64,000 nt of DNA from a phage, in sequence record OZ413487.1. One strand, 5' to 3'. The position numbers and the translations under genes were made by a program. Positions within the stretch are counted from its first letter, which is position 1. Each line of letters starts with the position of its first letter. The notes beneath the pieces are model-generated. The model ran no database searches and was not told where the DNA came from. It saw nothing but the letters and a program-made list of their open reading frames with translations. This document shows, in pieces, positions 4,891 through 50,813 of this stretch.

Positions 4891-5166
4891 AAATAACATT
4901 GTGGCTTCATAGAGTAATCTATGTCGAATAACCTCTTTAACTGCGGGAAGCCTAAACCTTATGGCAAGGTAATCCGCAACGAAGCGCTCAAAAGAGCGAA
5001 CGCTCAGAGGCCATTCCGAAAGGAAGTAGACCAGCAAGTGCGGTCGAAATGGGAGGATTCCTGTGGTTGCTTATCATAGGAATATGAGATGGTCCGATCC
5101 TACGTGAAAACGTATGGCTATGCACGTAATGGTGCGGGGTAGCTTAACGACCTACCTGAACTATTG
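4891..5166. other. putative group I self-splicing intron in DNA polymerase gene
   Basis: Exon 1 ends in U (4890); intron ends in G (5166); internal guide CAUUGUGG (4897-4904) can pair with exon-1 end CCAU (P1, U.G at splice site) and exon-2 start GAUG (P10); four in-frame stops; splicing restores YYH-DEYQLQV. Confidence 0.55.
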
Positions 5167-5520
5167 GATGAGTACCAACTTCAAGTGCCTGACACACCGA
5201 AGTATAAGACTGTGTACACCTTCGACACAATTGAAGAACTGGAAGCATTTAAGGCAGAGCAGGAAGCCAAACTTCATGTGTTCGACGGTCATAAGTACAA
5301 AAAGGCACGCAAGGATGAGGACGGAAACGAAGTGGTTGACAGAGACGGAAACACGGTGTACGATCCTATCCTGAACGATGACGGAAAGCTTGAACTTATC
5401 TGGAGCCCTGTGGGTGAAATGGTGGTACATTGCTTCTGGCAAGCTTCTAAAATGATGGGAGTCCCGTTCCAGATCACAGGTGAATACTTGTGTGGTCGTA
5501 ATTGGGGTGATTGTCACTAA
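5167..5520 (+). CDS. DNA polymerase, family A, exon 2 (motif C Asp-Glu and C-terminal end)
   Basis: Same frame as exon 1; begins DEYQLQV (T7 pol has HDEIQVG); ends GRNWGDCH, like T7 pol C-terminus GPNWAICH; ORF-track start 5164 is the TTG ending the intron. Confidence 0.6.
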   Translation, partial: DEYQLQVPDTPKYKTVYTFDTIEELEAFKAEQEAKLHVFDGHKYKKARKDEDGNEVVDRDGNTVYDPILNDDGKLELIWSPVGEMVVHCFWQASKMMGVPFQITGEYLCGRNWGDCH

Positions 5521-5569
5521 TGTAAACTATCAACACATGGAAGTGTTGTTGAGCAAAGAGGAGACTTTT

Positions 5570-5854
5570 ATGGTAGTAGAACCAACAAAAACATTTACAT
5601 CCATGACTATCCCTGTTATTATGCAGGTGGAGTGTGTTCAGGTATCTCAAGTGTGGCCTGGCACCAAAATCCCAACAGGGCCTGATTTCTTTCAGGTTGG
5701 GAAAGTGTACAATGTCTGGAAGGCACCAGATTGTTACCCTTTCATTAAAGATGACCGTGGGATGCTGTGGTACCTTGGAAATGACTTGACACTGCACCTT
5801 GGGAATACTATTATTGCAGTATTCAGACTTAACAAGAAGGAGACCGATCAATGA
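5570..5854 (+). CDS. hypothetical protein
   Basis: ORF track 5480..5854; start moved to ATG with GAGGAG RBS. Confidence 0.4.
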   Translation: MVVEPTKTFTSMTIPVIMQVECVQVSQVWPGTKIPTGPDFFQVGKVYNVWKAPDCYPFIKDDRGMLWYLGNDLTLHLGNTIIAVFRLNKKETDQ

Positions 5855-6078
5855 CGACTTTGGTTAAAGCTACCTTTGTAGAAGAAAAGATGACAGACCT
5901 GTCATTCTTTAAAGAAGGAAAGACCTACGAGGTTTATTACGATAAAGCTCGTGCAAACAAAATGATTAAAGACGAGGAAGGGGTTGCCTGGTATATCTCT
6001 CACCTGGCAAACGGTGAGTATCATATCTACGGAACCACTTTGCTTGCCAAGTTTGTAGTTGTTGAAGAGGACCTATGA
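5851..6078 (+). CDS. hypothetical protein
   Basis: ATG with AAGGAG RBS; 4-nt overlap with upstream gene. Confidence 0.45.
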   Translation: MTTLVKATFVEEKMTDLSFFKEGKTYEVYYDKARANKMIKDEEGVAWYISHLANGEYHIYGTTLLAKFVVVEEDL

Positions 6079-22848: not shown

Positions 22849-22867
22849 TACAACAAGGTGCACGGTC

Positions 22868-22893
22868 AGGGGCTTAAAGCCCCTTTCTTTTTG
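22868..22893 (+). terminator. intrinsic terminator ending the + strand gene block
   Basis: AGGGGC-TTAAA-GCCCCT followed by TTCTTTTTG. Confidence 0.7.
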
Positions 22894-23502
22894 TCTCCTC
22901 TTTTCCTACCACAAATGGCCCCGCCTGGCAAATGGAATAATCAACAAGCCAGCAATTAACCCCACTGTACAAACATACATATAAAATAACTATTGCATAA
23001 TTTTTCATTGTGTGGTAGCAGTGCCATTTTTACACGTTTTTCCTTCCAAAATTGCACGTAATGCAGCATTTGCACAAAATTTAACCTGATGCATATCTTC
23101 AATAGCTTGTCAACAACTAAAAATCTTTATAAGTCATACACTTACATAACTACAAAAACGTTTTCTACGTGAAAAATCGAGTATAACTATAGCCGCCAGA
23201 TCTCAGAATTTACGTACGCTCGCCATTCTATAGCCTGCTAAGCATTTATTCCAACCATAGAATAACGGAATAGTCAATACCTGCATAAAATAATTATTCG
23301 TGTAAACTGCATAACATAAATCGGCCCAGGTGTCAACATTTTTCGTAAACAGTCTGGAATTGTCACGTTAGGTTACCATAAGCAGAGAAATCTTTAGTCG
23401 TCTAATGTTTACTGTACATTACTATACTGACTGGAATCATTAGATGACTAAGAGAAAGATAAGAAATAATTAATAATGTAATTATTTTACCTGTAACAAT
23501 AA

Positions 23503-23760
23503 GGCAACTATGCAAACGAATGGCATGGCGCGACGGAGTCGCGACATAATATAAAAGCAGTAACCATCACCCCCGTGATAGTTTGTCTGCAAACTATTAA
23601 TCAGATCATAGTTGCCTTGTATTTAGTTAATCATGACATGACAAGCAAGGCAACTATAGATCTGCTAATAGTTGCCCTGCTTTTATATTATGTCATGCTA
23701 ATTATAATCAGTGCGATTATTGTCATGTATAATTATTGTCATGCAAACGAATGGCATGGC
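23503..23760. repeat. GGCAACTAT motif x4 (two inverted pairs) bracketed by 19-nt direct repeat TGCAAACGAATGGCATGGC
   Basis: Direct repeats at 23511-23529 and 23742-23760; 12-bp inverted repeat ATAGTTGCCTTG / CAAGGCAACTAT at 23608-23619 and 23646-23657. Confidence 0.6.
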
Positions 23761-23767
23761 TGATTAT

Positions 23768-23862
23768 CGGTGTGTAAACAGTCAATCATGTAAATGGTTA
23801 GCATGTGAACAATCAGGAATGTAAACAATCCAGTGTGTAAACTAATAGGTGTGTAAAAGTGT
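23768..23862. repeat. TGTAAAC iteron cluster (5 copies in ~95 bp)
   Basis: GTGTGTAAAC x2-3, ATGTAAA, AATGTAAAC at 11-25 nt spacing. Confidence 0.55.
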
Positions 23863-24134
23863 CATGTTGTGTCAGTTAGGTCACATTATGTCAGACAAGT
23901 TTTTCTCCTCTTTGTCAAGTGCTGCATGAAAAATTTACAAGCTTGTATGGTAGCATTTTTGCGGCCCTGTTTACATTCAGTAATGTATGTATAATCCTTG
24001 TTGTGTGGGCGTTTAGACGTCTAGACGGTTGGAAGTCCACAGGTCAATATCTAATCTATCGGCTGCTAACTATATCCCACACAAATAGTAAGAAATATGA
24101 TTGTTATATGCGTAAACTGTAACTCATGTTATCA

Positions 24135-24505
24135 ATCCCTGTATGGATCGCCAGTGGTGCGCATAATAGGTATTATGTTAAATTGCCCGTAATGATAACA
24201 GTTCTCACAATGATAGGTATTCTCATTCATCCACACAAAATAGGTTGCAAATGTTGTGCCACTGTGTGAACGGCCTGGCCTATTAATTTCTCTCACTGCC
24301 TCGATATTTGAGAATTGTTATCCCTGTATGGATCGCCAGTGGTGCGCATAATAGGTATTATGTTAAATTGCCCGTAATGATAACAGTTCTCACAATGATA
24401 GGTATTCTCATTCATCCACACAAAATAGGTTGCAAATGTTGTGCCACTGTGTGAACGGCCTGGCCTATTAATTTCTCTCACTGCCTCGATATTTGAGAAT
24501 TGTTA
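24135..24505. repeat. tandem duplication, two ~185-bp units
   Basis: Unit beginning ATCCCTGTATGGATCGCCAGTGGTGCGCATAATAGG... occurs twice head-to-tail, essentially identical. Confidence 0.85.
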
Positions 24506-25564
24506 TAAGAATGAGAAGTATTCCCATTCCGTCCGCCTGGCAGCACTCCTGTAGGTCCTGCAAGGACTCTAGCTGAAAGCTAGACCCTTCGGGCCTCCCT
24601 GTAGGTCAGGTCAAAATCGTGGTAGAATTGGGCCTGTTCAGATATTTCTGGCTGACTCTTCAGGTCTGTGTGGGAAAAGCCAACCTCTCCGGCGGGGCAG
24701 GGGGTCATGACGGGAAAATTGCAGGTCAATTAAAAAATTTACGTGGTGTATGAAGCGCTCTTCAGGTAAGGCATGTATTATGGGATGAAACCCTCTTCAG
24801 GCAATGATATTTGTGGGTGTGATATTTGCTGGAAAGCCAGATATGACGGGACTCCCGGCGGGGATGGGGTAGTACAGACAGGGAAAATATGAGAATGTAG
24901 TTGGGGAAATTGATCAGACAGGTAGAGTATGGAATATGTTACAAGTATGTTAAATATGGAGGTTGAATATCTGTAGGATTTGTGTGTAAAATCAAAGACT
25001 TAAGGGGTGTTGTGGTATTTTCTATAAATAATTCAAGTTTAATAGGCAATATTTGTCTCTATCCGCTTTGTGTGGTAAACAGATTCAGATTAGATTGGTT
25101 TACAAGTGTATACATAATATACAAATTAAAGATACAAGAAACCCCCCTCCCCCTTCGGCTACCATTCACCTTTTCCTCTGACTGGTACTTAAACACTTAT
25201 TCAGACTCTTCAGGTTATCACCCATATATCATATGGCAGTGACTGGTGTCCTCCGGCCCCTCTTTCGTCACCCGTCCGCTTCGCCATGCTAATGCCATAG
25301 CCAATGGTTCGGTTGTTCACTCTGTTCACTCAGGTGTATCTCCATACCCCTTCAAACCGAAGAGAACAGAAAACCCGAATTACTCGGTAAAAGAAAAGAG
25401 AAGAACTTAATTTTATCAGGATAGGCAAGAATGTCAAGGCATGACTGCTCACTAAACAAGCAAACAGTCATGTGTGGAAGGTAAGTGATTGTGGTGGTGG
25501 GAAATTTAGTTGAAAGATGTGTTATAGGTGCTCCCAGCACTTTAGCCGGGTAGCTAATTGTGTG

Positions 25565-40573: not shown

Positions 40574-40745
40574 TGTTGCACCCCCTCTTCATCCTCATGA
40601 TATTTCTTTTCACGCTTGTGTTTTTTCTTAAGCTCAAGCGCAATCTCTTTTTTGTACGCCTTCTTCAAGGCTTTTTTAGCCATTTGGCACCTCCTCTGCT
40701 CTCATTACGCTAATTATAACCAACTTAACAAAGCTTTGTCAACGA

Positions 40746-41219
40746 TTAGTCAACCTGAACCCAACCATCTGCTACCTTTTTAAACATTCTTTGGTTATCA
40801 CTACCTCTGAATGGTTTTTTGGTGGGGTTATCTTTTTCGTACTTACCATCCATAATGTAATCGACACTATCTTTAATATAATCTGGGACTTCTTCAAACA
40901 AATACCCTGTGTACACCCAGATAGTTTTTGTGTTGCCGAAGCGTTCACGGATAGCGAGAATGATCGAGTACATACCATCGATATTGTAAGGCGCTAAAGG
41001 TTCGCCACCACACAATGTAACTCCGGTAATATGTTTCGGCTCTATAGAGTGAAGTATACTCTCAATTGTGTCATTTGTTAACGGTTCCCCTTTAGCGGGT
41101 GACCAAACACTTTTGTTTTGGCAACCAACACAGTGATGTGGACAACCAGAACAGAACACCGTTGTCCTAATGCCTGGGCCGTCAACCATGCTACACTCTA
41201 TAATATTAACAACATTCAT
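40746..41219 (-). CDS. nrdG: anaerobic ribonucleotide reductase activating protein (radical SAM)
   Basis: Cys cluster CSGCPHHCVGC; size and position next to nrdD. Confidence 0.8.
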   Translation of the reverse strand: MNVVNIIECSMVDGPGIRTTVFCSGCPHHCVGCQNKSVWSPAKGEPLTNDTIESILHSIEPKHITGVTLCGGEPLAPYNIDGMYSIILAIRERFGNTKTIWVYTGYLFEEVPDYIKDSVDYIMDGKYEKDNPTKKPFRGSDNQRMFKKVADGWVQVD

Positions 41220-41452
41220 TCCTTACCCTCTTTGAGGTAGGGATATTCAGGCCCACAATAAGCTCTATCTAAGAAAACAGCTTCTTCCCCTCTGGAATCA
41301 GTAGATCTATAATACCCATCACCCTGGTAACTAACGAACCAGTAGCACCCATCATCGCTTTCTACTGTTGTGGCTCTGTCCGAATGAAAGATAATTTCGT
41401 AATCCTTGCCGAATGTAAACCATCTGTTAGCTTTTACACAGACACCTACCAT
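41216..41452 (-). CDS. hypothetical protein
   Basis: ORF track; 4-nt overlap with nrdG. Confidence 0.4.
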   Translation of the reverse strand: MVGVCVKANRWFTFGKDYEIIFHSDRATTVESDDGCYWFVSYQGDGYYRSTDSRGEEAVFLDRAYCGPEYPYLKEGKE

Positions 41453-41783
41453 AAGGAACCTCTCTTCTGTGGTGTGCTTCTATTCAAGATAAACTTATAA
41501 AAGTCCATTTGATGAAGCCGTATAACTTTTTATACTTACGCTTCAGTGCTAACAATTTTATCTTGAGTTTCTTGATAGATTTCCGCATTTCGACCCCTTA
41601 TGCTTATAAGTACTCTGCATCGCATTCAGGACAATGCCAAATAAAATCGTCCAGTGCCTTGCACCAACGAAGATTGCAACGACAACCACACTTGCAAATT
41701 TTATAAATACCTTTAGACATACTGTACCTCCTAGCTCACTGTGTGTCAATAATATGCCACATCCTTGTGGCTTTTGTCAAGTA

Positions 41784-43907
41784 TCAGCAAATACAACTTC
41801 CATAGTGCTTAACTCGCTCGATAACTTCCGCTTGCTTACCTTTATTGTAAGGACGGGAGTTAGGACTGGAAAGGTATCCAGACACACGTCGAATTACACT
41901 GATCGTTCCCTCTTCATGGTTTCCACACTCTGGGCATACAAAGCCTTTAGCTGTTGCACTGAACTCACCAGAGAAACCACACTTGAGACATTTATCCACA
42001 GGTTGGTTAATACCAAAATACATAATATGTTTATATCCGAAATCAACAAGAGTTTCCAAAGCATCTAAGTTGTTTTTCAGATTTGGTGTCTCTACGTATC
42101 CGATGTTGCCACCAGAGGAGATCATAGCAAAACCTTCCTCATACTCCCACTTATCAAAAGGAGAGCTACTGATCCATACTGGCTGATGGAAACTGTTGGT
42201 GAGATATTCATGCTCGTGCTTCAACACTTCCGGATATTCACGATCCAGACAGGTTGCAGCTTTATAGCATAGACTTTCAGAAGGGGTGCCGTACAAGCTA
42301 AATGCTAGTCTACTTTCCTTCTTGTATCTCTCACAAGCATCTCTCATGTGCTGAAGGATTCCAAGAGCTAAAGCCTTGTCACCCTCTCTGCCCAAAATCT
42401 TACAGGTTTCATACACACCAATATACCCAATACTGATGGAAGCGTACCCGTCATAGAAGAGTTTATCAATACTCTCTTCAGGATCCAGGCGAGCAAGAGC
42501 GCCTTCACACCACATGATAGGGTTCTGCCCTGCCTTGGTGCCTTTCAGACGGTTAACCCTTACAAGGTGAGCTTCATATGCCAAATCCAGATACTCGTCA
42601 AGAACGGCAAAGAAATCAACACCTTCCGTCTTAGCTTTTGCCGCAATCATTGGTAGGTTAAGGCTAACAACACCCAAGTTGAATCTGCCGAGGTATTTCT
42701 CCTCACCTGTTTCCAAGTCATTGTATTTGCTAAGAAAACTCCGGCAACCCATACTCGTTACTTTGCCATCTGTCGAGCCTGTCACTTTACGATTTAGTGG
42801 AACAGAAACAAAGTCAGGATAAATCCGCTCTGCAGAGCATTCCAGAGCTAATCGTTTCAAATCATAGTTGGGATCTCCAGGGTTCATGTTGACACCCTCT
42901 TCTAGGAAGAACAGCACTTTAGGGAACACAGGTGTGATACGTTCTTCACCAAGACCCATTTTGTGGACTTTCAAGTAGTTTTTGGTAATCATTCTACCAA
43001 AGACTGAGGTGTCCAAACCTAAACTCAATGTGATGAATGGAGTTTGCCCGTTGACAGAAGTTAACGTATTGATTTGATAGAGCAAAGTCTGCATGCTGTC
43101 AAATACGTCTTTATCTGTCATTTGCATTGCAACAGTCTCAGCATCTGGCAACCAATGTTCCTGGCAAAATTTAAGGTTCTTCTCATAAGTCGCCTCAACA
43201 TACTGTGCCAAATAATGGTCAATATGGCTCATAGTCTGACCCCCATATTGAGCACTAGCTACTGCACTAGAGATTTGGCTAAGGATTGTTGTTGCAACCC
43301 CTATTGACTTCGGCTTACTGACATGGGCGTTACCAATGTTGAATCCGTTTTCCAACATATCTGGATAATTTACCAAACAACAGTTTGTTAACGGACTGAT
43401 CAAGTAGTCAAGATCATGCACATGGATGAAGCCTTTATTGTGCTCTTCTGAGACACGGTCTGGCAGGATCTGTGTTGATGCAAGGTGTTTGCTAAGGATG
43501 CCTGCAAGCAGGTCACGATGAGTGTGTACATGATTGGTAGGCTTATTTGCGTTTTCTTTTGTAAATTCATCACAAGTTCGATCCAAGAAGCCACTAATAT
43601 CTGCAAGCAGTTTTCCACCTGCCTCTCTGTTATTATCTCTTGTCTGTCTATACTGGATGTATTCTCTGGCTGCACATTTTAAACCCATATCCATAAGAGC
43701 ATCTTCAACAAGGATATGGATATTTTTTACAGAGATCGTGCACTGGTCGGTTGGTAGATTGTTAGCAACAACTTCATTAACCGCACAAGCGATCCGGTAA
43801 GCTTCTTCTTCAGTATGTCCAGACTCAAGTAAGGCGGACTCTGCCGCCTTGATCACCTTAATTCCGTTATAGACCTCTTCTCTACCGTCCCGTTTTACAA
43901 CTTTCAC
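41784..43907 (-). CDS. nrdD: anaerobic ribonucleoside-triphosphate reductase
   Basis: N-terminal ATP-cone; C-terminal glycyl-radical motif RVSGYL; zinc ribbon CLKC...CPEC. Confidence 0.9.
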   Translation of the reverse strand: MKVVKRDGREEVYNGIKVIKAAESALLESGHTEEEAYRIACAVNEVVANNLPTDQCTISVKNIHILVEDALMDMGLKCAAREYIQYRQTRDNNREAGGKLLADISGFLDRTCDEFTKENANKPTNHVHTHRDLLAGILSKHLASTQILPDRVSEEHNKGFIHVHDLDYLISPLTNCCLVNYPDMLENGFNIGNAHVSKPKSIGVATTILSQISSAVASAQYGGQTMSHIDHYLAQYVEATYEKNLKFCQEHWLPDAETVAMQMTDKDVFDSMQTLLYQINTLTSVNGQTPFITLSLGLDTSVFGRMITKNYLKVHKMGLGEERITPVFPKVLFFLEEGVNMNPGDPNYDLKRLALECSAERIYPDFVSVPLNRKVTGSTDGKVTSMGCRSFLSKYNDLETGEEKYLGRFNLGVVSLNLPMIAAKAKTEGVDFFAVLDEYLDLAYEAHLVRVNRLKGTKAGQNPIMWCEGALARLDPEESIDKLFYDGYASISIGYIGVYETCKILGREGDKALALGILQHMRDACERYKKESRLAFSLYGTPSESLCYKAATCLDREYPEVLKHEHEYLTNSFHQPVWISSSPFDKWEYEEGFAMISSGGNIGYVETPNLKNNLDALETLVDFGYKHIMYFGINQPVDKCLKCGFSGEFSATAKGFVCPECGNHEEGTISVIRRVSGYLSSPNSRPYNKGKQAEVIERVKHYGSCIC

Positions 43908-44182
43908 TTTTTCTCTCCAAAACCATTCTTAACAAAAGAGATGAAATCGTCGGCACCGCCTATATGGACACTTTCAAGATTGCTTTCTAAGAAGATCTGC
44001 GGCAACGTTCTGGGTACGATTGGACTGCACTTCTCAATAAGCTCTTCTTTTGTGTAACCCTCGCCAAGTGTCTTATATACAAAAGGCAGACCTTTACTGA
44101 CTGCAAATTCTTTTGCTCTTACACAATGTGGGCAGTTATCTTTACCGTAAATAATAAAGAAAAAAGATTTTTCACAGCTCAT
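43904..44182 (-). CDS. glutaredoxin-like protein
   Basis: Active-site CPHC; ~92 aa; between nrdB and nrdD. Confidence 0.7.
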   Translation of the reverse strand: MSCEKSFFFIIYGKDNCPHCVRAKEFAVSKGLPFVYKTLGEGYTKEELIEKCSPIVPRTLPQIFLESNLESVHIGGADDFISFVKNGFGEKK

Positions 44183-44185
44183 GTA

Positions 44186-45274
44186 TTAAAACTCCCAAAT
44201 TTCTTCTTCAGCGTCATTAACAGTTGTGTTGACGCGGTAGTCAGTGTTCGACATTTCTTGGTTCGCCGTCTGTTGCAATGAAGGTTTCATCCACACCTGC
44301 ATAAACGGTAGAGGGTCCTTTGTTGGCGGCACAAAGTCTTTGTCGATGCCGTAGTAATCATAAATCGGTGAGCAGTTATAGTCAACCCATTCTTTAAGCA
44401 ACGGTGAGTTAAGACCTATAATCGCTCTTCCTTCGCTGAAAATATAGTCACTCCAACCGTACTCTTTGGTTCGTACTTCATCAAGAATCTCTTTTAACTC
44501 CCCTTTTATCTCAAGGAAGCTTTTCTCCCATGCCGGATCATTAAGCAGGATATCAATGATGGCAAAATCACCTTTCGAGTGTAGCATTTCGTCAAGCATG
44601 ATTTTTTGAACAAGCTGCGCCACCTGAACAAAAATACCCTGTTCAGCTACTGCGAAAGTGCATGCAAAACTTGCAATAAACTCAATACTTTCCAGGGCTA
44701 AAAGTGCAAAAAGCGCTCTAAGAATGCATTTCCGCACAATATCTTCTTCAACACTAGAAGGATCCAGTCGGTATTTTGCACCAATAACCTCAAGCTCTTG
44801 CATGTATTTGACAATAACGCCAGATCTGCTCAGAACGTTTTGGTTTTCCTGAATCTCTTCTATAATCTCACGGGCATTGGGGAGGCATTGTCTAACAATC
44901 TCTGAGTAAGTTAGTGCGTGAAGAACTTCAATCTCTGACTGTTTCATCAATAGAGTGAAAAGCTCACTATTAGTGATGAATGGTGAAAAGAGGCAGATGA
45001 TCGATCTTGCCGCAACGCTATCAGCCTCCCATTGCCACATCAAGGTCTGCACCATCACGTCATAAGTTGACTTGGAGCATGTTACAAAATCTGAAATAGA
45101 TTGCGACAAATCCACTTCATCCTCTGCCCAATCTTGCTCTTTTTGTTTTTTGTATAGTTCAAACAGTTGTGGATATTTTTTGTTGATAGAGTCATACATA
45201 CCCATTTGCTGTCCTAGAAACAGCGGATAGTCACCAGTTTTATGAGCGGTGTTCTCAGCATTAAATACAGCCAT
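44186..45274 (-). CDS. nrdB: ribonucleotide reductase class Ia beta subunit
   Basis: Ferritin-like helices; 362 aa; directly downstream of nrdA. Confidence 0.85.
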   Translation of the reverse strand: MAVFNAENTAHKTGDYPLFLGQQMGMYDSINKKYPQLFELYKKQKEQDWAEDEVDLSQSISDFVTCSKSTYDVMVQTLMWQWEADSVAARSIICLFSPFITNSELFTLLMKQSEIEVLHALTYSEIVRQCLPNAREIIEEIQENQNVLSRSGVIVKYMQELEVIGAKYRLDPSSVEEDIVRKCILRALFALLALESIEFIASFACTFAVAEQGIFVQVAQLVQKIMLDEMLHSKGDFAIIDILLNDPAWEKSFLEIKGELKEILDEVRTKEYGWSDYIFSEGRAIIGLNSPLLKEWVDYNCSPIYDYYGIDKDFVPPTKDPLPFMQVWMKPSLQQTANQEMSNTDYRVNTTVNDAEEEIWEF

Positions 45275-45313
45275 TATTCTAACCTCTAAAATGGGGCCGA
45301 AGCCCCTTTAAAA

Positions 45314-47629
45314 TTATAGTGCACAACTTTCGCAATACGGATCTTCAACCGAACTATCTGCAATCAAAGGGTAGTTCTTTCTGGTTTCATCTTCAGCCTG
45401 TTTCTTGGCATGAAGTTCCTCTGCCAATGAGTCACCAGCACCAACCCTGGAGTTTAAATAATACCATGTCTTCATCCCGAATTTAGTGGCACGGATAAGG
45501 TACCCTAGCTGCTCCTTCATTGAAATTTTACCATCTTTCAACTTGGTGTAGTCTATGTATAAATCCGCGCTGATTGCCTGACCTGTAAATTTTTGAATCA
45601 CAGCATACATATCGATCATGTCGTTAGTATCAACGTCCCAAGCCGAGGTGTAATACTCTTTCAACTCATCATAGTCAGGAACGATAAACAGCACCTGCCC
45701 TTGTGGCGACTTTTTAAAGATAATGTGCTCACGGACAGGATAAACCCCGTTAGTGGTGTTTGTTGCCAGCGAAGAGCTTTCATTAGGCATATATGCTTCA
45801 AGAACGCTATTACGTAGCCCACCATTTTCAATGATTTCTTTACGTAACCCTTCCCAATCCTGTTTAAGAGAAGGATCTTTCACCACGCTATCGACCTCTT
45901 TGTTATAGGTGTCGATTGGTAACCAACCTTCTGGATATTTTGTTTTATGCATCCACTCGCAGACACCACGCTCTTTTGCCAACCGTAAACTTGCCTTATG
46001 CAAGCTGTAGCTGTGAAGTTCTGCAAGATCGTGAACAAGCTGTTTACTTTCAGGAGATCCGTAAGTAACCTTGTGGCTGGCAATAAAATGTGCAACATTG
46101 GTAAGGCCAACCCCGATGGATCTGCGTTTTTTAACTGTGCTTTCCATATTTTCATACGGATATGTCATGATTTCCATAACATTGTCAATCATAAGCACCG
46201 TGTAGTATGCAACATCCTCATACTCCTCTGGAGTAACCCTTCCAGCTACAAGAGATGACAGGAAGCACAATGCAACCTCTCCATCATCAGCATCGTACTT
46301 GAAGATATTACGCATATCTGAATAGCCTTTTGTAGGGAGGGCTATTTCTGCACACAGGTTACTTGAATAGATCACATCTTTAAAAGGTGTATGTCTATTC
46401 ATCTCATCTGTCCAGTATACATACAGCCTTCCCACCTCAGTACGCTGCGTGATCAGTTCAACAGCAAGATCTCTGGCTCGGATCCATGTTTTAGGAATAC
46501 TGTCATCTTTAGCAATACGATCAACCTCTGCATCAAACTCCTCCATAGACATGGTGAAGATACCCTCATGCAGTTGAGGAGCGTGCTTATAAGAAACAAG
46601 CATCCAATCTAAATTCTTAGCCACACGGTTGATAAACGACCTATTAATACCGATGGAGTAGTCCATGGTGTTGATTCTTTTTGAAGCAACAGTCATAGGG
46701 TTTCTCAAGCGGATTAGCTCATCAATCTGCGGGTCTAGTGCAAGGAATGATACTGTTGCAGAACCGCCACGTGATTGTTGTCTGTTCTCCTTAACACCAG
46801 CATCAATACCTCGATAATATGGAATCTTACCCATGTGTTTAATAGTGTTACCGCGAACACCATCACCTGCAGATCTTGATGATAAATAGTAGCCGATACC
46901 TGCTTGGTTAACCGTCATTGTGTACGCAACTTCACGTGCCACACCAATAGATTTTGCTGTATCGTCAGCTTTTATTACACAACAAGATGCATACCCTGTC
47001 TTACCTGTGCGCAGCCCGTTTAAGTACGGTGTCGGGGCATTGATCTTTAAGTCGGACAGATAAGTGTATAATTTTACAACATCGTTGATACGACGTTCTT
47101 TTGGCATATTCTTCATGACAGCCATTGCTATCCCCATAAACATCATCTGGGGAGATTCAAACAAGGTGTCTTTAAGAGTATCCTTGATCCCGTATTTGTC
47201 GCGAAACTGTTTAAGGACTGCATAGCCATAACCGAGATCTTTACTGTGGTCAATAACAGCGTCTAAAGTGTTTAGCTCGGTAAAGCTATATCCCATATCC
47301 TCCCAATACCCTTTCTCAACCATGTCGTTGTAAAATGATGGTAAGGAAGGGATCTTTGTAAACCCTCCAAAAGCCTCTTTATAAATCTGACCAATAAGAA
47401 CACGACCAGCCATACGGGAATGTGCTTCGTCTTTACGGCTAACACAGGAGTCTATGATAGCTTGGTTAACTTCTTTGGTTGTACATCCATCATACAGTCG
47501 TTTGTATGCATCCAGTGCAATATGTGACCAATTGCCGTTACCGTCGTCACCGAAAATAGCTGCCTTATTTAAACGTTCTGGATCGAATGCCACTTCACAT
47601 CCGTTGCTTTTAATTACCTTGGTGATCAA
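45314..47629 (-). CDS. nrdA: ribonucleotide reductase class Ia alpha subunit
   Basis: ATP-cone N-terminus; active-site SNLCAEIALP; C-terminal redox Cys pair CESCAL. Confidence 0.9.
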   Translation of the reverse strand: MITKVIKSNGCEVAFDPERLNKAAIFGDDGNGNWSHIALDAYKRLYDGCTTKEVNQAIIDSCVSRKDEAHSRMAGRVLIGQIYKEAFGGFTKIPSLPSFYNDMVEKGYWEDMGYSFTELNTLDAVIDHSKDLGYGYAVLKQFRDKYGIKDTLKDTLFESPQMMFMGIAMAVMKNMPKERRINDVVKLYTYLSDLKINAPTPYLNGLRTGKTGYASCCVIKADDTAKSIGVAREVAYTMTVNQAGIGYYLSSRSAGDGVRGNTIKHMGKIPYYRGIDAGVKENRQQSRGGSATVSFLALDPQIDELIRLRNPMTVASKRINTMDYSIGINRSFINRVAKNLDWMLVSYKHAPQLHEGIFTMSMEEFDAEVDRIAKDDSIPKTWIRARDLAVELITQRTEVGRLYVYWTDEMNRHTPFKDVIYSSNLCAEIALPTKGYSDMRNIFKYDADDGEVALCFLSSLVAGRVTPEEYEDVAYYTVLMIDNVMEIMTYPYENMESTVKKRRSIGVGLTNVAHFIASHKVTYGSPESKQLVHDLAELHSYSLHKASLRLAKERGVCEWMHKTKYPEGWLPIDTYNKEVDSVVKDPSLKQDWEGLRKEIIENGGLRNSVLEAYMPNESSSLATNTTNGVYPVREHIIFKKSPQGQVLFIVPDYDELKEYYTSAWDVDTNDMIDMYAVIQKFTGQAISADLYIDYTKLKDGKISMKEQLGYLIRATKFGMKTWYYLNSRVGAGDSLAEELHAKKQAEDETRKNYPLIADSSVEDPYCESCAL

Positions 47630-47934
47630 TTTGCTTCCTCCACTTCATCAACGTATTTATCAAGGCAGGTATCAGTATCTTGCTGGATAAAGGTATCCTC
47701 TTCTACAGAGATATTTATAATTTTGCCTGTATACTCGTCATAATAAACATCATCATACATTTTAATATCGTTTGTCAGGCCGTTGAACCAAAGCCAACCA
47801 ACATACTCTGACCGACTTGCAAAACCAAGATCCTTCCACTTGGAGTTATGACTCATCTTCACCACCTTAGCTTTCAATACCGAATAATTTTTCCAGGCGA
47901 TGCAGATCTTCAAAATTGAAAGGTTCATCAACAA
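47626..47934 (-). CDS. hypothetical protein
   Basis: ORF track; start may be an internal Met. Confidence 0.35.
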   Translation of the reverse strand: MLMNLSILKICIAWKNYSVLKAKVVKMSHNSKWKDLGFASRSEYVGWLWFNGLTNDIKMYDDVYYDEYTGKIINISVEEDTFIQQDTDTCLDKYVDEVEEAN

Positions 47935-48367
47935 TATGAATATCTTCAGCCTTTTCAGATTGTTTTGTATACTTTCTTACATTAACACGATCCTCTACAG
48001 GAATATCATACGGAAGATCTTGAACAAGCATTGCCTCACCAGGTGCTTTATCCACATCTAAAATATCTACACCGTTATACATTTGCGGGTATCTAAAGTC
48101 TGCACGCATGACACCAGCAAATACATCTGCCTTTCGATAATGTGTTGGCTTATTTTTGCATCGAACGTTTTTTCCACGAAGAACATCAATACTTTTTAAA
48201 TCAAACCCTACGGCAAAGAGTGCAGCTCGGAGACCGTTTCGTGTGCGAACGTTAAACCCGGGAACGGTAGATAGGAAATCCAAAGTAACTGAAATAAATG
48301 TCTTTTTAGGAATCATAACATTACTCATATCTGTCTCCATTTCTGGCTCACCAACAAAGTGAGCCAT
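47867..48367 (-). CDS. hypothetical protein
   Basis: ORF track; no confident motif. Confidence 0.4.
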   Translation of the reverse strand: MAHFVGEPEMETDMSNVMIPKKTFISVTLDFLSTVPGFNVRTRNGLRAALFAVGFDLKSIDVLRGKNVRCKNKPTHYRKADVFAGVMRADFRYPQMYNGVDILDVDKAPGEAMLVQDLPYDIPVEDRVNVRKYTKQSEKAEDIHIVDEPFNFEDLHRLEKLFGIES

Positions 48368-48426
48368 TATTATAGATTATCTAATACTATTAGTCAACAC
48401 AAAAGTTACCTATCGCTGTGATAGGA

Positions 48427-49410
48427 TTAACCTTTCACGAAGTGGTTATTAAGCAGTTGTCTGTGCTGAACCCACCCACAAAAGTTGGCAGACCAGAATT
48501 TACCATCACGGTCTTGATGGGTTACACCTTCCTGCCAAGTACTGATGTCTTGTGTGATTTCACATGAAGACAGGTAGTAGTTTAAACGTTCCATTGCGTT
48601 ATCGTGATCCATAGGTGTTGCCTGGTGCTCGTAAGGGCTTGCATGAATACGATCCCCACCAATCAATTTTTTAGCAACACTATCTGCCTTTTCAAACGTG
48701 CTGTCAATATTTCGATAAGATACTTGTGCACAGCAACTAGCACTGATAGACAGAGCTTCTTTAGTATCGAGAATGCAAAGCTTTCCTTCTGTGTCACGTA
48801 CAGCGTAGTTAAACTCTCCGTCCAAATAAACGTGCTCTACATATGGGGTGTGCCATTGACCCGGTTTAAGGATTTCAGGAGTGCTATTCTCAAGAGCCTC
48901 CCACATACAATTAGCTAACATCTGAATCGTAGGATCCGCATCGTGCCAGCAACGGAGGTGGAAAAAATTATTCCACTCGGTGCTTGTTACAACTGTTTTC
49001 ATGCGCTGGAACGGCTCCACTAAGCGGTTACATACTTGCTTATGGTAACCAGCAAGGGCGAACTTCTCTGCATGCCAAGCGGCGTTTTTTGCAGCTTCTT
49101 TCCAAAACTCTTCAGGAGTTAGCTCCATGTCAGTGTACTCTACACGGATCTTTTGATCGTGTTCCCCACCATCTTCCATTCCTCGCTTATTTACACCGAA
49201 GCGAACTGGCATTGCCGGATTCTCCACAATCTGTTGCAGCATCTTTCCGACAGGCACTGCACGGGAAGACATGGCGTTTCGGCTGAACACTCGGTGCGTC
49301 ATAAGCTCTGAGTGAATAATTCGAGGATACTCTAGCTCAAAAGTGGTGATGCGCTTACCTTTCTCGGAAATGCTGTCAGCAATGATCTTTGCAGTGCACA
49401 GTTTTAGCAT
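48427..49410 (-). CDS. thyX: putative flavin-dependent thymidylate synthase (ThyX-like)
   Basis: ELMTHRVFSRNAMSSRAV fits ThyX signature RHR-x7-S with first Arg replaced; within dNTP-synthesis cluster. Confidence 0.5.
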   Translation of the reverse strand: MLKLCTAKIIADSISEKGKRITTFELEYPRIIHSELMTHRVFSRNAMSSRAVPVGKMLQQIVENPAMPVRFGVNKRGMEDGGEHDQKIRVEYTDMELTPEEFWKEAAKNAAWHAEKFALAGYHKQVCNRLVEPFQRMKTVVTSTEWNNFFHLRCWHDADPTIQMLANCMWEALENSTPEILKPGQWHTPYVEHVYLDGEFNYAVRDTEGKLCILDTKEALSISASCCAQVSYRNIDSTFEKADSVAKKLIGGDRIHASPYEHQATPMDHDNAMERLNYYLSSCEITQDISTWQEGVTHQDRDGKFWSANFCGWVQHRQLLNNHFVKG

Positions 49411-49610
49411 TATTTAGCTCTCCTTGTTTTAATTTTGGAAATTTCGTCTGGGTTTATGTTGGCCTTAAATGCAAGGTATCTGTTGAACATATCGGAGCAC
49501 ATGTCTTGGGTGATCCTAGAGGCATACACTAGCTTACCTCCTAGATCATACACCTCTAGCCAGTCACCGTATCTGACTACAGGATCGCCACCTTTAGAAC
49601 ATCTGCCCAT
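49410..49610 (-). CDS. hypothetical protein
   Basis: ORF track. Confidence 0.35.
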   Translation of the reverse strand: MGRCSKGGDPVVRYGDWLEVYDLGGKLVYASRITQDMCSDMFNRYLAFKANINPDEISKIKTRRAK

Positions 49611-49611
49611 T

Positions 49612-50205
49612 TCAAATACCTTCTAAAAATTTTCCTATTTTATACCAGCTATTAGCGGTATAGTCAACACTGACCTTTAACTCCTCGAATTGCTCATAAG
49701 GCGTATCTTTTAGGATTTTAATAACTTCAGGTCGTGAAGCGAATTGGTTCAGGTATTCATGCCTGTCATCAATTATAACATCTACAGCCACATTTCCTTT
49801 GAAATGTGTGGCGTAGAATCCGTGGCCCTGGGTGTGATCGTCCAGATCCATAAAATCACTGGTCCAACGCTTTAAGAACCTTGATTTAGATGCAAGGTGA
49901 CCTTTCTTGCATACCGAGATAAATGCAAGCTTGTGACCACGAGCCACCAAATCTTTCATAACCTCAATAGCCCCCTCTTCAGGCTTAAGGAAGTCGTAGA
50001 GGGACGGATCACTCCAGAAATCAAAAGGTCCTATGATGTTTTCTTTGGGACGATCAGGCCAATACTTTGACAGATCGTAATACATTAGCCCATTAGAAGG
50101 TTTAGCTACTGTCTTACTGGCTGGACCATACAAACGCTCCAACCACTCCCACCATGCTGTTCCTGAATCTACCAGTGTCAGATCTACATCAATTCCGATT
50201 AACAT
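49612..50205 (-). CDS. HAD-superfamily phosphatase, putative 5'(3')-deoxyribonucleotidase
   Basis: N-terminal GIDVDLTLVDS (DxDxT/V) and later VDVIIDD. Confidence 0.5.
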   Translation of the reverse strand: MLIGIDVDLTLVDSGTAWWEWLERLYGPASKTVAKPSNGLMYYDLSKYWPDRPKENIIGPFDFWSDPSLYDFLKPEEGAIEVMKDLVARGHKLAFISVCKKGHLASKSRFLKRWTSDFMDLDDHTQGHGFYATHFKGNVAVDVIIDDRHEYLNQFASRPEVIKILKDTPYEQFEELKVSVDYTANSWYKIGKFLEGI

Positions 50206-50813
50206 TCTTCTTGGGCCTCTTTAGCATCAATATACTTGCACACAATCTCCGATGCACACTCCCAAGGTGCACCTTCAGGGTTTACAACATCAAACTCAAC
50301 CCCTTTTATTCCGTTCTTTTCCAGACTTAGATAGGTTCTGGAATCATTTCCCCAGTCATATCCTACACGGTGAATACGGAACAACAACAGATCTCCACCT
50401 GTGCTGTATGCGTACTCGCTAAGGCATGCCAGCTCCTCTTTGAATCCCCCATCGGAGTAAACAATAACCCCTTTACCTTCAGGGAAATCTTTCTTCAAAG
50501 ATGCGACTGCGGCTTTACCGAAAGCATCTTCACCAAAGATAGGTTTAATCAGATTTTCACTACAATGGATCATCCATTCTCGCGGAGAAACATGCTTGCC
50601 GTCTATCATTAAGAAAGGGCAAGGCTCTTCTTTGTAGTGACGGTCATAAAGTGCATTCCAGAGTTGAGGAGTTACACCAGCTGCCTTAATTGCCACACTG
50701 AAGAGCATTTCCTTAACCTCGCGGTGGTGTGAGTTAGGAATAGCTTCCAACAAGAGATCTGCAATGTGATCCTTACCACTGCTGGGTGGGGCGTTAAGAA
50801 CAATAATATCCAT
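50199..50813 (-). CDS. P-loop nucleotide kinase, putative dNMP kinase
   Basis: N-terminal LNAPPSSGKDHIADLL resembles T4 dNMP kinase P-loop. Confidence 0.5.
   Translation of the reverse strand: MDIIVLNAPPSSGKDHIADLLLEAIPNSHHREVKEMLFSVAIKAAGVTPQLWNALYDRHYKEEPCPFLMIDGKHVSPREWMIHCSENLIKPIFGEDAFGKAAVASLKKDFPEGKGVIVYSDGGFKEELACLSEYAYSTGGDLLLFRIHRVGYDWGNDSRTYLSLEKNGIKGVEFDVVNPEGAPWECASEIVCKYIDAKEAQEEC

Follow-up and report, generated by a model that had tools for sequence, protein, structure and literature searches.

The region at 40746-50813 of a 64,000-nucleotide stretch of phage DNA (OZ413487.1; referred to as the window) holds a set of genes for nucleotide metabolism. The initial annotation had proposed a complete dNTP-synthesis supermodule with both aerobic and anaerobic ribonucleotide reductases (RNRs). 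Our analysis indicated with high confidence that these genes make up the cluster with which a lytic E. coli phage of the rV5-like type (Vequintavirus) supplies its DNA precursors.

Organization of the cluster

All genes of the cluster were located on the minus strand. The ORFs named in the initial annotation were all present there with unchanged coordinates, except for a 38-aa ORF that was off by one. The functional assignments in that annotation were all upheld by Pfam, NCBIfam, PHROG and structural matches; HMM annotation had been proposed as a check, and the family matches agreed with the assignments. In the order of transcription, the genes for a dNMP kinase, an NT5C/HAD protein, a 66-aa ORF and ThyX were followed by a sigma70-like promoter. 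Two small conserved ORFs, NrdA, NrdB, glutaredoxin and NrdD came after the promoter, and then the 38-aa Cys-rich ORF, two more small ORFs and NrdG. The genes were tightly packed at intergenic distances from -7 to +98 nt, with overlapping start and stop codons at several junctions. The contiguity of the genes was thus as described. The ThyX, HAD and kinase genes, however, had been placed after the nrd genes, and they lie upstream of them in transcription, which runs from 50813 to 40746.

The promoter ahead of the nrd genes (48369..48397, minus strand) matched the consensus at 11/12 positions in the scan, and a sigma70 promoter is annotated at the equivalent place in rV5. This sigma70-like promoter (48397-48369) separates the kinase-HAD-ThyX genes from the nrd genes, which suggests two neighbouring transcription units and not a single operon. 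A perfect sigma70 consensus promoter (12/12; 40713..40742, minus strand; P118 in rV5) was found just downstream of nrdG, and it marks the start of the next unit.

Three of the small ORFs were conserved on the minus strand upstream of nrdA. The 66-aa ORF (rV5 gp101; 49410..49610) matched PHROG 4903 (E 5.6e-35) and gave no match in Pfam. Salmonella phage PVP-SE1 carries a 64-aa ORF between its HAD-like and ThyX-like genes, comparable by position only, and there a 106-aa ORF intervenes between this ORF and ThyX. The 153-aa ORF (rV5 gp103; 47867..48328) matched PHROG 5557 (E 8e-75), and the match spanned residues 14-166 of a longer, 166-aa version. Translation more likely begins at the rV5 start (M14), because the ATG at 48367 adjoins the -10 hexamer. 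A 158-aa ORF occupies the matching position upstream of nrdA in PVP-SE1. The 76-aa ORF (rV5 gp104; 47626..47856) matched PHROG 5488 (E 7.8e-41), and its stop codon overlapped the nrdA start as TTGA. In PVP-SE1, the ORF at this position carries the Pfam label DUF8047.

Aerobic and anaerobic ribonucleotide reductases

NrdA, the class Ia RNR alpha subunit (45314..47629, minus strand; 771 aa, TTG start), matched Pfam Ribonuc_red_lgC (E 2e-100) and lgN (E 7e-14), and it aligned with E. coli R1 (E 7e-133). The equivalents of C225, N437, C439, E441, C462 and Y730/Y731 were kept, and the C-terminal end was CESCAL. The N-terminal ATP-cone was weak, with 21.8 bits where the gathering score is 25.8. NrdB, the beta subunit (44186..45274, minus strand; 362 aa), matched Pfam Ribonuc_red_sm (E 1.4e-30). 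Its residues were read from an alignment to 7mdi chain E and mapped to E. coli numbering; E. coli R2 was also matched. The iron ligands D84, E115, H118, E204, E238 and H241 were kept, as were the equivalents of the radical Tyr122, W48 and the C-terminal Y356. The glutaredoxin (43904..44182, minus strand; 92 aa) showed a CPHC active site and scored 32 bits with Pfam Glutaredoxin (gathering score 22.9). Its top NCBIfam family was GrxA, with a score under the cut-off of that family.

NrdD, the class III anaerobic RNR (41784..43907, minus strand; 707 aa, GTG start), matched NCBIfam NF006732 with 826 bits (cut-off 657). Its Pfam domains were an N-terminal ATP-cone (E 1.9e-13), NRDD and Gly_radical. 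In the alignment with T4 NrdD (E 1.4e-166), the TNCC, MGCRSF and NLGV motifs, the four zinc-ribbon Cys and the RRVSGYL glycine were kept. NrdG, the radical-SAM enzyme that activates the class III reductase (40746..41219, minus strand; 157 aa), matched NCBIfam TIGR02491 (145 bits, cut-off 126) and Pfam Fer4_12 (E 9e-38), and the motif C26-x3-C30-x2-C33 was present in the sequence. Both RNR classes were therefore found together with the redoxin and the activase, as proposed, and none of the catalytic residues checked in NrdA, NrdB, NrdD and NrdG carried an inactivating substitution. It had also been suggested that this combination reflects adaptation to hosts that switch between oxic and anoxic growth. 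The presence of both classes was borne out, and phages that infect facultative anaerobes usually combine class I with class III (PMC3653736); the physiological benefit itself is presumed.

Putative dNMP kinase and HAD nucleotidase

The 204-aa P-loop protein (50199..50813, minus strand; homolog of rV5 gp099) resembled dNMP kinases, and its top structural match was the T4 dNMP kinase (gp1). The next gene (49612..50205, minus strand; rV5 gp100) encodes a 197-aa HAD-superfamily protein that resembled NT5C-type 5'(3')-deoxyribonucleotidases. D6-x-D8-x-T10, S97, K136 and D146-D147 were invariant, and the motifs DxDxT, S, K and DD are common to this protein and the human mitochondrial and cytosolic 5'(3')-deoxyribonucleotidases (mdN, cdN; Pfam NT5C). 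The substrate specificity of HAD enzymes is hard to infer from sequence. It is possible, but unlikely, that the protein acts as a phosphatase on polynucleotides or on a substrate that is not a nucleotide. The Pfam NT5C score of 28.8 bits was narrowly above the gathering score of 24.8, by just about 4 bits. The protein matched PHROG 420, whose label is "unknown function", and its second PHROG match, a weak one, was "phosphoheptose isomerase". However, when the family profile was compared with PDB, the top relatives were all 5'(3')-deoxyribonucleotidases, led by the human mitochondrial enzyme (1mh9 and relatives), although the similarity to mdN and cdN was low (E 0.004). Homologs were found in 700 phage records, in several of which the gene adjoins a dNMP kinase or thymidine kinase gene, and other annotators had independently named homologs 5'(3')-deoxyribonucleotidase. 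Membership of the NT5C 5'(3')-deoxyribonucleotidase family is thus supported at the level of sequence. Deoxynucleoside-5'-monophosphatase Dmp of phage T5 is presumably another related system.

The nrdD-nrdG spacer

The 38-aa ORF had been described as a Cys-rich ORF with a strong ribosome-binding site between nrdD and nrdG. This description was correct, with the position 41603-41719 corrected to 41604-41720 (minus strand). The ORF contains seven Cys in the pattern CxCxCxC...CxxC and matched PHROG 20137 (E 5e-31), and its product is probably a small zinc-ribbon-like protein. The doubt that it is a chance ORF in the spacer, or that the overlapping frame of 75 aa (gp109) is the real gene, arises from the rV5 RefSeq record, where a different frame is annotated at this position. 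The 38-aa ORF also gave no Pfam match and was confined to one genus, with all of its 122 phage records being Vequintavirus-like. Several observations made either possibility quite improbable. An AGGAGG ribosome-binding site lies 7 nt 5' of the ATG, and the variable sites across seven genomes were distributed 4/3/10 by codon position in this frame, which is coding-like. In SophiaRose, the indels were in frame and left the Cys pattern intact along with the last 28 residues, even though the upstream context differs. The stop codon overlaps the nrdG start as ATGA in several relatives, whereas the alternative frame in the window is a mere 63-aa ORF with a TTG start. The small Cys-rich protein was followed by a variable insert (41216..41588, minus strand) with a 34-aa ORF (41484-41588) and a 78-aa ORF (41216-41452; PHROG 3249, E 1.3e-26), both on the minus strand. 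The insert was carried by the window, rV5 and CarlMeissner, and it was missing from MaxBurger, S127 and YN3.

ThyX-type thymidylate synthase

The assignment of 48427..49410 (minus strand; 327 aa, rV5 gp102) depended on whether the protein has a ThyX fold. The fold was present, and the protein was assigned as a divergent ThyX-type (flavin-dependent) thymidylate synthase. Its NCBIfam thyX score was 39.5 bits, below the cut-off of 87.9, and as a single sequence it had no match in PDB. H39, R40, S48, R50, R129, N148, R153 and an HxSPxEH motif were kept, which we take to be the equivalents of the dUMP- and flavin-binding residues of T. maritima ThyX. The canonical R-H-R reads T-H-R, with Thr in place of the first Arg. 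The protein was compared with canonical ThyX (T. maritima TM0449, PBCV-1 A674R and M. tuberculosis ThyX), and it is longer, at 327 aa against about 190-250 in the matched chains. The segment order apparently differs, as canonical residues about 20-60 (helices and HETPFEH), which are N-terminal to the R-H-R helix there, aligned to 221-266 here. Further differences were an additional beta-meander (residues about 72-97) and, at the C-terminus, an extension in which R317 is invariant. It is very improbable that the protein instead acts as a flavin-dependent methylase or hydroxymethylase of pyrimidines with a different substrate or product, such as a UMP/dUMP methylase like PolB or the maker of a modified base. 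The presumed dUMP- and flavin-binding equivalents were kept, canonical ThyX proteins outscored PolB, and the gene adjoins the dNMP kinase and the reductases, with td in T4 as a functional parallel. In addition, Vequintavirinae are "exceptionally susceptible" to restriction-modification systems (PMC8594841), which makes a protective modification of the bases unlikely and favours unmodified DNA with an ordinary dTMP synthase.

Proposed pathway

Homology, predicted folds, intact catalytic residues, gene order and conservation of the cluster were observed; from these we infer enzymatic activities, substrates, timing and physiological benefit. Host RNA polymerase would transcribe the cluster from the sigma70-like promoters. 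With oxygen, NrdA/NrdB (diiron-tyrosyl radical, class Ia) would reduce ribonucleoside diphosphates, and NrdA would be re-reduced through its C-terminal cysteine pair, probably by the phage glutaredoxin. Without oxygen, NrdG (radical SAM, [4Fe-4S]) would put a glycyl radical on NrdD, and the activated NrdD would reduce ribonucleoside triphosphates. The ThyX-type enzyme would use methylene-tetrahydrofolate and reduced flavin to methylate dUMP to dTMP, which would make DHFR unnecessary. The T4-gp1-like kinase would make dNDPs from the dNMPs that ThyX and the breakdown of host DNA provide, and host NDP kinase would carry out the final phosphorylation. A probable role for the NT5C-type enzyme is to trim or rebalance the pool of dNMPs. 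The annotation of the rV5 region that corresponds to the cluster includes no dCMP/dCTP deaminase, dUTPase, thymidine kinase or NDP kinase. Because a dUMP-generating enzyme and NDP kinase are absent from that annotation, the cluster is not a complete pathway, and the term "complete" was overstated.

Comparison with known systems

The cluster is intact, ordinary and already known. The rV5 genome paper of 2013 listed anaerobic and aerobic RNR subunits and thymidylate synthase among the nucleotide metabolism genes (PMC3606486). The papers that we read reported no activity of the cluster proteins for rV5-like phages. The region was nearly unchanged in more than 100 deposited Vequintavirus genomes, with 97-98% identity over its full length and the same genes annotated. 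In rV5 (NC_011041; gp099-gp112) and other Vequintavirus such as BASEL Bas48 CarlMeissner, the same genes occur in the same order with 97-98% identity over 10,068 bases, and the ThyX-like protein of slur16 was 100% identical. These relatives showed allelic differences only. Some carry homing endonucleases or introns in or beside nrdD, and some have a different nrdG allele and are without the insert of the 34-aa and 78-aa ORFs. The cluster and its gene order were also conserved in PVP-SE1, a distant member of the subfamily.

T4 and the window both have class Ia and class III reductases, a phage redoxin and the activase, and similarity to T4 extended to the kinase, with gp1 as its top structural match, and to NrdD. 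The PDB chain of T4 NrdD (605 residues) aligned to 103-701 and has no counterpart of the N-terminal ATP-cone. In T4, where the precursor genes are scattered, td is ThyA-type and is accompanied by DHFR (frd) and dCMP hydroxymethylase. In contrast, the thymidylate synthase in the window is ThyX-type and the genes are contiguous.

Organization of the gene cluster

The region 40746-50813 was densely coding on the minus strand, and ORF reading returned the coordinates proposed in the initial annotation. Transcription order runs from high to low coordinates and begins with a kinase-like P-loop protein of 204 aa (50199-50813). It was followed by a HAD protein of 197 aa (49612-50205), a 66-aa ORF (49410-49610) and a ThyX-like protein of 327 aa (48427-49410). 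Two ORFs of 153 aa (47867-48328) and 76 aa (47626-47856) preceded NrdA, which had a TTG start (45314-47629). NrdB (44186-45274), a glutaredoxin (43904-44182) and NrdD with a GTG start (41784-43907) came next. The final part was composed of a Cys-rich ORF of 38 aa (41604-41720), ORFs of 34 aa (41484-41588) and 78 aa (41216-41452), and NrdG (40746-41219), all on the minus strand. The 38-aa ORF existed as claimed, but it had been placed one base off.

Intergenic gaps ranged from -7 to +98 nt, with start and stop codons overlapping at several junctions. The largest gap (98 nt), between the ThyX-like gene and the 153-aa ORF, contained a sigma70-like promoter on the minus strand (48397-48369) that matched 11 of the 12 consensus positions. 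A sigma70 promoter matching all 12 positions was located after nrdG on the same strand (40742-40713). Both coincided with promoter positions annotated in the E. coli phage rV5.

Class Ia reductase and glutaredoxin

NrdA was aligned to E. coli R1 with an E value of 7e-133. The equivalents of C225, N437/C439/E441 (SNLCAEIALPTK), C462 and Y730/Y731 were kept, and the C-terminus was CESCAL. NrdA therefore had the catalytic Cys triad with Asn and Glu, the Tyr-Tyr radical-transfer pair and the C-terminal Cys pair of a class Ia alpha subunit. NrdB residues were mapped by us to E. coli numbering from an alignment to class Ia R2. The equivalents of D84, E115, H118, E204, E238 and H241 were all present, as were those of the radical tyrosine Y122, of W48 and of the C-terminal Y356. 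NrdB thus kept the six diiron ligands, the radical tyrosine and the C-terminal Tyr expected of a class Ia beta subunit.

The N-terminal region of NrdA was alignable to the E. coli R1 N-terminus, and its match to the Pfam ATP-cone was weak (21.8 bits, gathering score 25.8, E 2.8e-4). Residues 1-70 resembled a degenerate ATP-cone, with VIKSNG in place of the E. coli VTKRDG. Judging from this degeneration, allosteric dATP inhibition of the phage NrdA may differ from that of the host enzyme.

The glutaredoxin scored 32 bits with the Pfam Glutaredoxin model (gathering score 22.9) and carried the CxxC of the thioredoxin fold as CPHC. No NCBIfam Grx subfamily model reached its cut-off for this protein.

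Class III reductase

NrdD was aligned to T4 NrdD with an E value of 1.4e-166. It kept TNCC, MGCRSF, NLGV, the four-Cys zinc ribbon (CxxC...CxxC) and the glycyl-radical motif RRVSGYL. The score was 826 bits against an NCBIfam equivalog cut-off of 657, and the glycyl-radical site, catalytic Cys and zinc ribbon of a class III enzyme were all found. NrdG had the radical-SAM motif CX3CX2C as C26-x3-C30-x2-C33 and reached 145 bits with TIGR02491 (NCBIfam equivalog cut-off 126). The residues checked in NrdA, NrdB, NrdD and NrdG were present, and the inactivating substitutions that would have spoken against the initial annotation were not seen in the nrd genes.

An N-terminal ATP-cone was detected in NrdD (Pfam E 1.9e-13), and it was retained with the GTG start at 43907 (region 43696-43907). 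In the BASEL record of CarlMeissner (Bas48), nrdD was begun at an internal ATG (local 4045-5955). With this start the ATP-cone is missing, and a 200-nt 'gap' opens behind the glutaredoxin gene. The nrdD of the window (41784-43907) was uninterrupted. In the close relatives MaxBurger, Mangalyan and phita32, a putative homing endonuclease or intron divided nrdD into two to three pieces. In SophiaRose, a GIY-YIG nuclease gene was situated directly upstream of the 38-aa ORF, at the position of nrdD in the window.

Small ORFs and nrdG alleles

The 38-aa ORF encoded MSKGIYKICKCGCRCNLRWCKALDDFIWHCPECDAEYL and matched PHROG 20137 (E 5e-31). It was found in 122 phage records, all Vequintavirus-like. It was absent in the Salmonella phage PVP-SE1, where nrdG directly followed nrdD. 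The rV5 RefSeq record has, instead of this frame, a 75-aa frame named gp109 that overlaps the nrdD end (window 41558-41785, minus strand). BASEL and other records annotate the 38-aa Cys-rich frame (41604-41720, minus strand). Among seven genomes, the variable sites of the 38-aa ORF were distributed over the first, second and third codon positions as 4, 3 and 10, a substitution pattern that favours the 38-aa frame over gp109 as the likely coding frame. The SophiaRose copy had in-frame indels behind a different upstream gene, and its cysteines and C-terminal 28 residues were kept.

Some records call the 38-aa frame 'anaerobic ribonucleoside-triphosphate reductase', on grounds that are not visible. 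From position and cysteine content alone, our guess is that its product might be zinc-ribbon-like and act as a small partner to the class III enzymes. The nrdD GTG start and the 38-aa ORF are handled inconsistently in public records, and the cluster could be used as an annotation sanity check.

In MaxBurger, S127, YN3, nom and SophiaRose, the stop of the 38-aa ORF overlapped the start of nrdG as ATGA. In the window, rV5 and CarlMeissner, an insert of approximately 390 bp with the 34-aa and 78-aa ORFs was located between the two genes. The nrdG alleles were compared using window 40746-41600 (minus strand) and MaxBurger local 1614-2087. Two alleles were distinguished, with 52% protein identity except in the last approximately 37 residues, in a genus that is otherwise approximately 97% identical. 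The insert accompanied the window/rV5 allele. Homology to the other alleles broke off precisely where the 38-aa ORF stops, and this pattern points to a mosaic replacement.

Kinase-like and HAD proteins

The protein at 50199-50813 showed a P-loop kinase fold nearest T4 Dnk, with an xSGKD P-loop, as in T4 gp1-type deoxynucleoside monophosphate kinases. Its sequence had no Pfam, NCBIfam or PDB match. When the family profile was compared with the PDB, a weak match to an adenylate-kinase P-loop was obtained (E 0.05). The top match of this profile was an Argonaute PIWI segment (E 5e-4) from a DGxFxE-like stretch, and it was taken as chance because the fold search clearly yielded P-loop kinases. The dNMP-kinase-like assignment was supported at the level of family and fold.

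The HAD protein at 49612-50205 gave nothing useful as a single sequence against the PDB. It passed the Pfam NT5C gathering score narrowly (28.8 bits against 24.8). The residues of HAD motifs I-IV (DxDxT, S/T, K and DD), namely D6, D8, T10, S97, K136 and D146-D147, were invariant. The family profile matched human 5'(3')-deoxyribonucleotidases (mdN/cdN) best in the PDB, with an E value of 0.004. With the NT5C match, the invariant HAD motifs and these PDB relatives, the proposed HAD nucleotidase was upheld, also at family and fold level. Homologs were present in 700 phage records, and some annotators label them 5'(3')-deoxyribonucleotidase. Among the listed phage records, several had the HAD gene beside a dNMP kinase gene, Vibrio phages and a further Escherichia phage among them, and others had it beside a thymidine kinase gene.

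ThyX-like protein

The ThyX fold was found in the protein at 48427-49410, in agreement with its ThyX-like assignment. As a single sequence, it matched Pfam Thy1 above the gathering score (38.1 bits), with only profile positions 60-191 covered. Its score with NCBIfam thyX (TIGR02170) was 39.5 bits, against a cut-off of 87.9. No full-length, same-order match above a curated ThyX family threshold was obtained in Pfam or NCBIfam, and the single sequence had no PDB match at E <= 1. The family was large: of the representatives of clusters defined at 50% identity, 5050 matched with E <= 1e-3, and 2010 of these passed the stricter limit of E <= 1e-30. Members occurred in 1035 phage records, and carriers included Vequintavirinae, ICP1, Pseudomonas PAK_P-like (PAK_P1-like) phages, Gamaleyavirus, N4-like and phiCbK-like phages.

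Residue equivalences were taken from profile alignments and our own mapping to the numbering of T. maritima ThyX, the canonical reference. The signature was T38-H39-R40-x7-S48 where the canonical one is R-H-R-x7-S, and T38-H39-R40-x7-S48-S49-R50 corresponded to T. maritima R78-H79-R80-x7-S88-G89-R90. H39, S48 and R50 were invariant, and among 66 family members at least 90% had Thr in the position of the first Arg. R129, N148 and R153 corresponded to R147, N169 and R174, respectively. R317, in the C-terminal extension, was also invariant.

The family profile matched T. maritima ThyX as three out-of-order pieces. T. maritima 62-90 corresponded to profile positions 26-54 and 155-201 to positions 133-179. 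T. maritima 20-60, which contains helices and HETPFEH, corresponded to positions 219-261 (SxSCCAQVSYR...HASPFEHQ); this numbering was made after removal of the 12-residue tag of the PDB chain. Every canonical ThyX structure started to align at its residues ~58-86, opposite residues ~22-33 of the family. This meant that the canonical N-terminal ~60 residues had no same-order counterpart. The canonical N-terminal helices and HxxPFEH motif aligned instead to residues ~221-266, behind the catalytic core. A profile of the C-terminal half aligned to T. maritima 20-63 (hhalign E 3.4e-4), and in hmmsearch it gave T. maritima ThyX 11.4 bits, whereas 2000 shuffled copies of that sequence reached 5.0 bits at most. 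The predicted model had helices at 216-231, 239-250 and 258-262 and then a strand at 264-266, which is the order of the relocated segment.

It is quite possible, though we stop short of calling it probable, that the rV5-like 'thymidylate synthase' belongs to a branch of the ThyX superfamily that is large and uncharacterised. In this branch, the segment order would be unlike the canonical one, with the flavin-proximal helical HxxPFEH segment in the C-terminal half rather than ahead of the catalytic helix, and T-H-R in place of R-H-R. The reordering could be either a true circular permutation or the relocation of one segment. Relatives of ~630-650 aa were considered as tandem duplications, that is, as intermediates of circular permutation. 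The sole one examined, P0126 (638 aa), had an intein instead, inserted exactly at the signature motif (MTHR, then C...VVHN, then CFSRNAMSS; THR|xFSRN), and the further relatives of this length probably also carry one. An arrangement of 1.5 tandem ThyX repeats was rejected, as the two halves were dissimilar (N- versus C-terminal hhalign, probability 0.2%).

A role of the ThyX and kinase genes in hypermodification was disfavoured. Restriction-modification systems act on Vequintavirinae, which are described as "exceptionally susceptible" to them (PMC8594841). This susceptibility speaks for plain dTMP synthesis by the ThyX-like protein rather than for a part in modifying bases.

No description of a permuted or rearranged ThyX of this arrangement was found in the searchable literature. 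If true, the rearranged enzyme could assemble active sites unlike the canonical homotetramer. The ThyX-like enzyme occurs widely among phages that have been used in or investigated for therapy (Vequintavirinae, ICP1 and Pakpunavirus). Were the rearranged topology and the T-H-R motif real and undescribed, their characterisation would add to ThyX enzymology in a genuine, if modest, way, and this apparently rearranged family is the only lead with some novelty in the cluster.

Proposed supply of DNA precursors

The cluster would serve as a phage-encoded supply of DNA precursors. Under oxic conditions, reduction would proceed through the class Ia enzyme with its dedicated glutaredoxin, and under anoxic conditions through the class III enzyme with its own activase. 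Thymidylate synthesis would be independent of DHFR through the ThyX-type enzyme. Phosphorylation of dNMPs would also be encoded within the cluster, together with a nucleotidase whose role is uncertain. The gene neighbourhoods in the phage records above suggest that the HAD nucleotidase and the kinase work as a pair on the pool of dNMPs.

The initial annotation had described a complete dNTP-synthesis supermodule carrying both reductase classes. Its observation was confirmed, and its interpretation was supported. However, completeness did not hold, since the annotation of the rV5 region that corresponds to the entire window lists no dCMP/dCTP deaminase, dUTPase, thymidine kinase or NDP kinase. 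The host presumably provides the dUMP and carries out the final phosphorylation.

ORF-poor region of the window

Outside the cluster, ~2.1 kb at ~22850-24980 had no ORFs of at least 70 aa and lay at a GC-skew and strand-switch point. Within it, a 185-nt sequence was duplicated perfectly in tandem (24135-24319 and 24320-24504), and several inverted repeats were also present. Its approximate counterpart in rV5 is a gap free of CDS (104013-106618). No Rfam match was obtained in the ORF-poor region around 22.8-25 kb, and an ARAGORN scan of the entire window gave no tRNA.

Comparison with related phages

In a megablast search with the 10,068-base cluster, 116 phage records covered 80% or more of the query, and identity was 95-99% in 107 records. 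The matches were Vequintavirus genomes, including rV5, BASEL isolates and O157 typing phage 5. Approximately 20 GenBank entries that go by the name 'Campylobacter phage' (87-143 kb; A135, A112b, D1, C14 and others) encoded rV5-type proteins with up to 97-99% identity, as compared for the 38-aa ORF and the HAD protein. These look like Vequintavirus sequences filed under a Campylobacter host name.

The cluster corresponded to rV5 gp099-gp112 with identical gene calls, and to Bas48 genes 0182-0195. As such it is already annotated and published and holds nothing new; it is the standard nucleotide-metabolism cluster of rV5-like phages, and it confirms the window as DNA of such a phage. The gene order of the cluster was also shared by the distant relative PVP-SE1. 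There, proteins of 201, 200, 64 and 106 aa were followed by the ThyX-like protein, an HNH protein, a 158-aa protein and DUF8047, and the order continued with NrdA, NrdB, a 115-aa protein, Grx, NrdD and NrdG.
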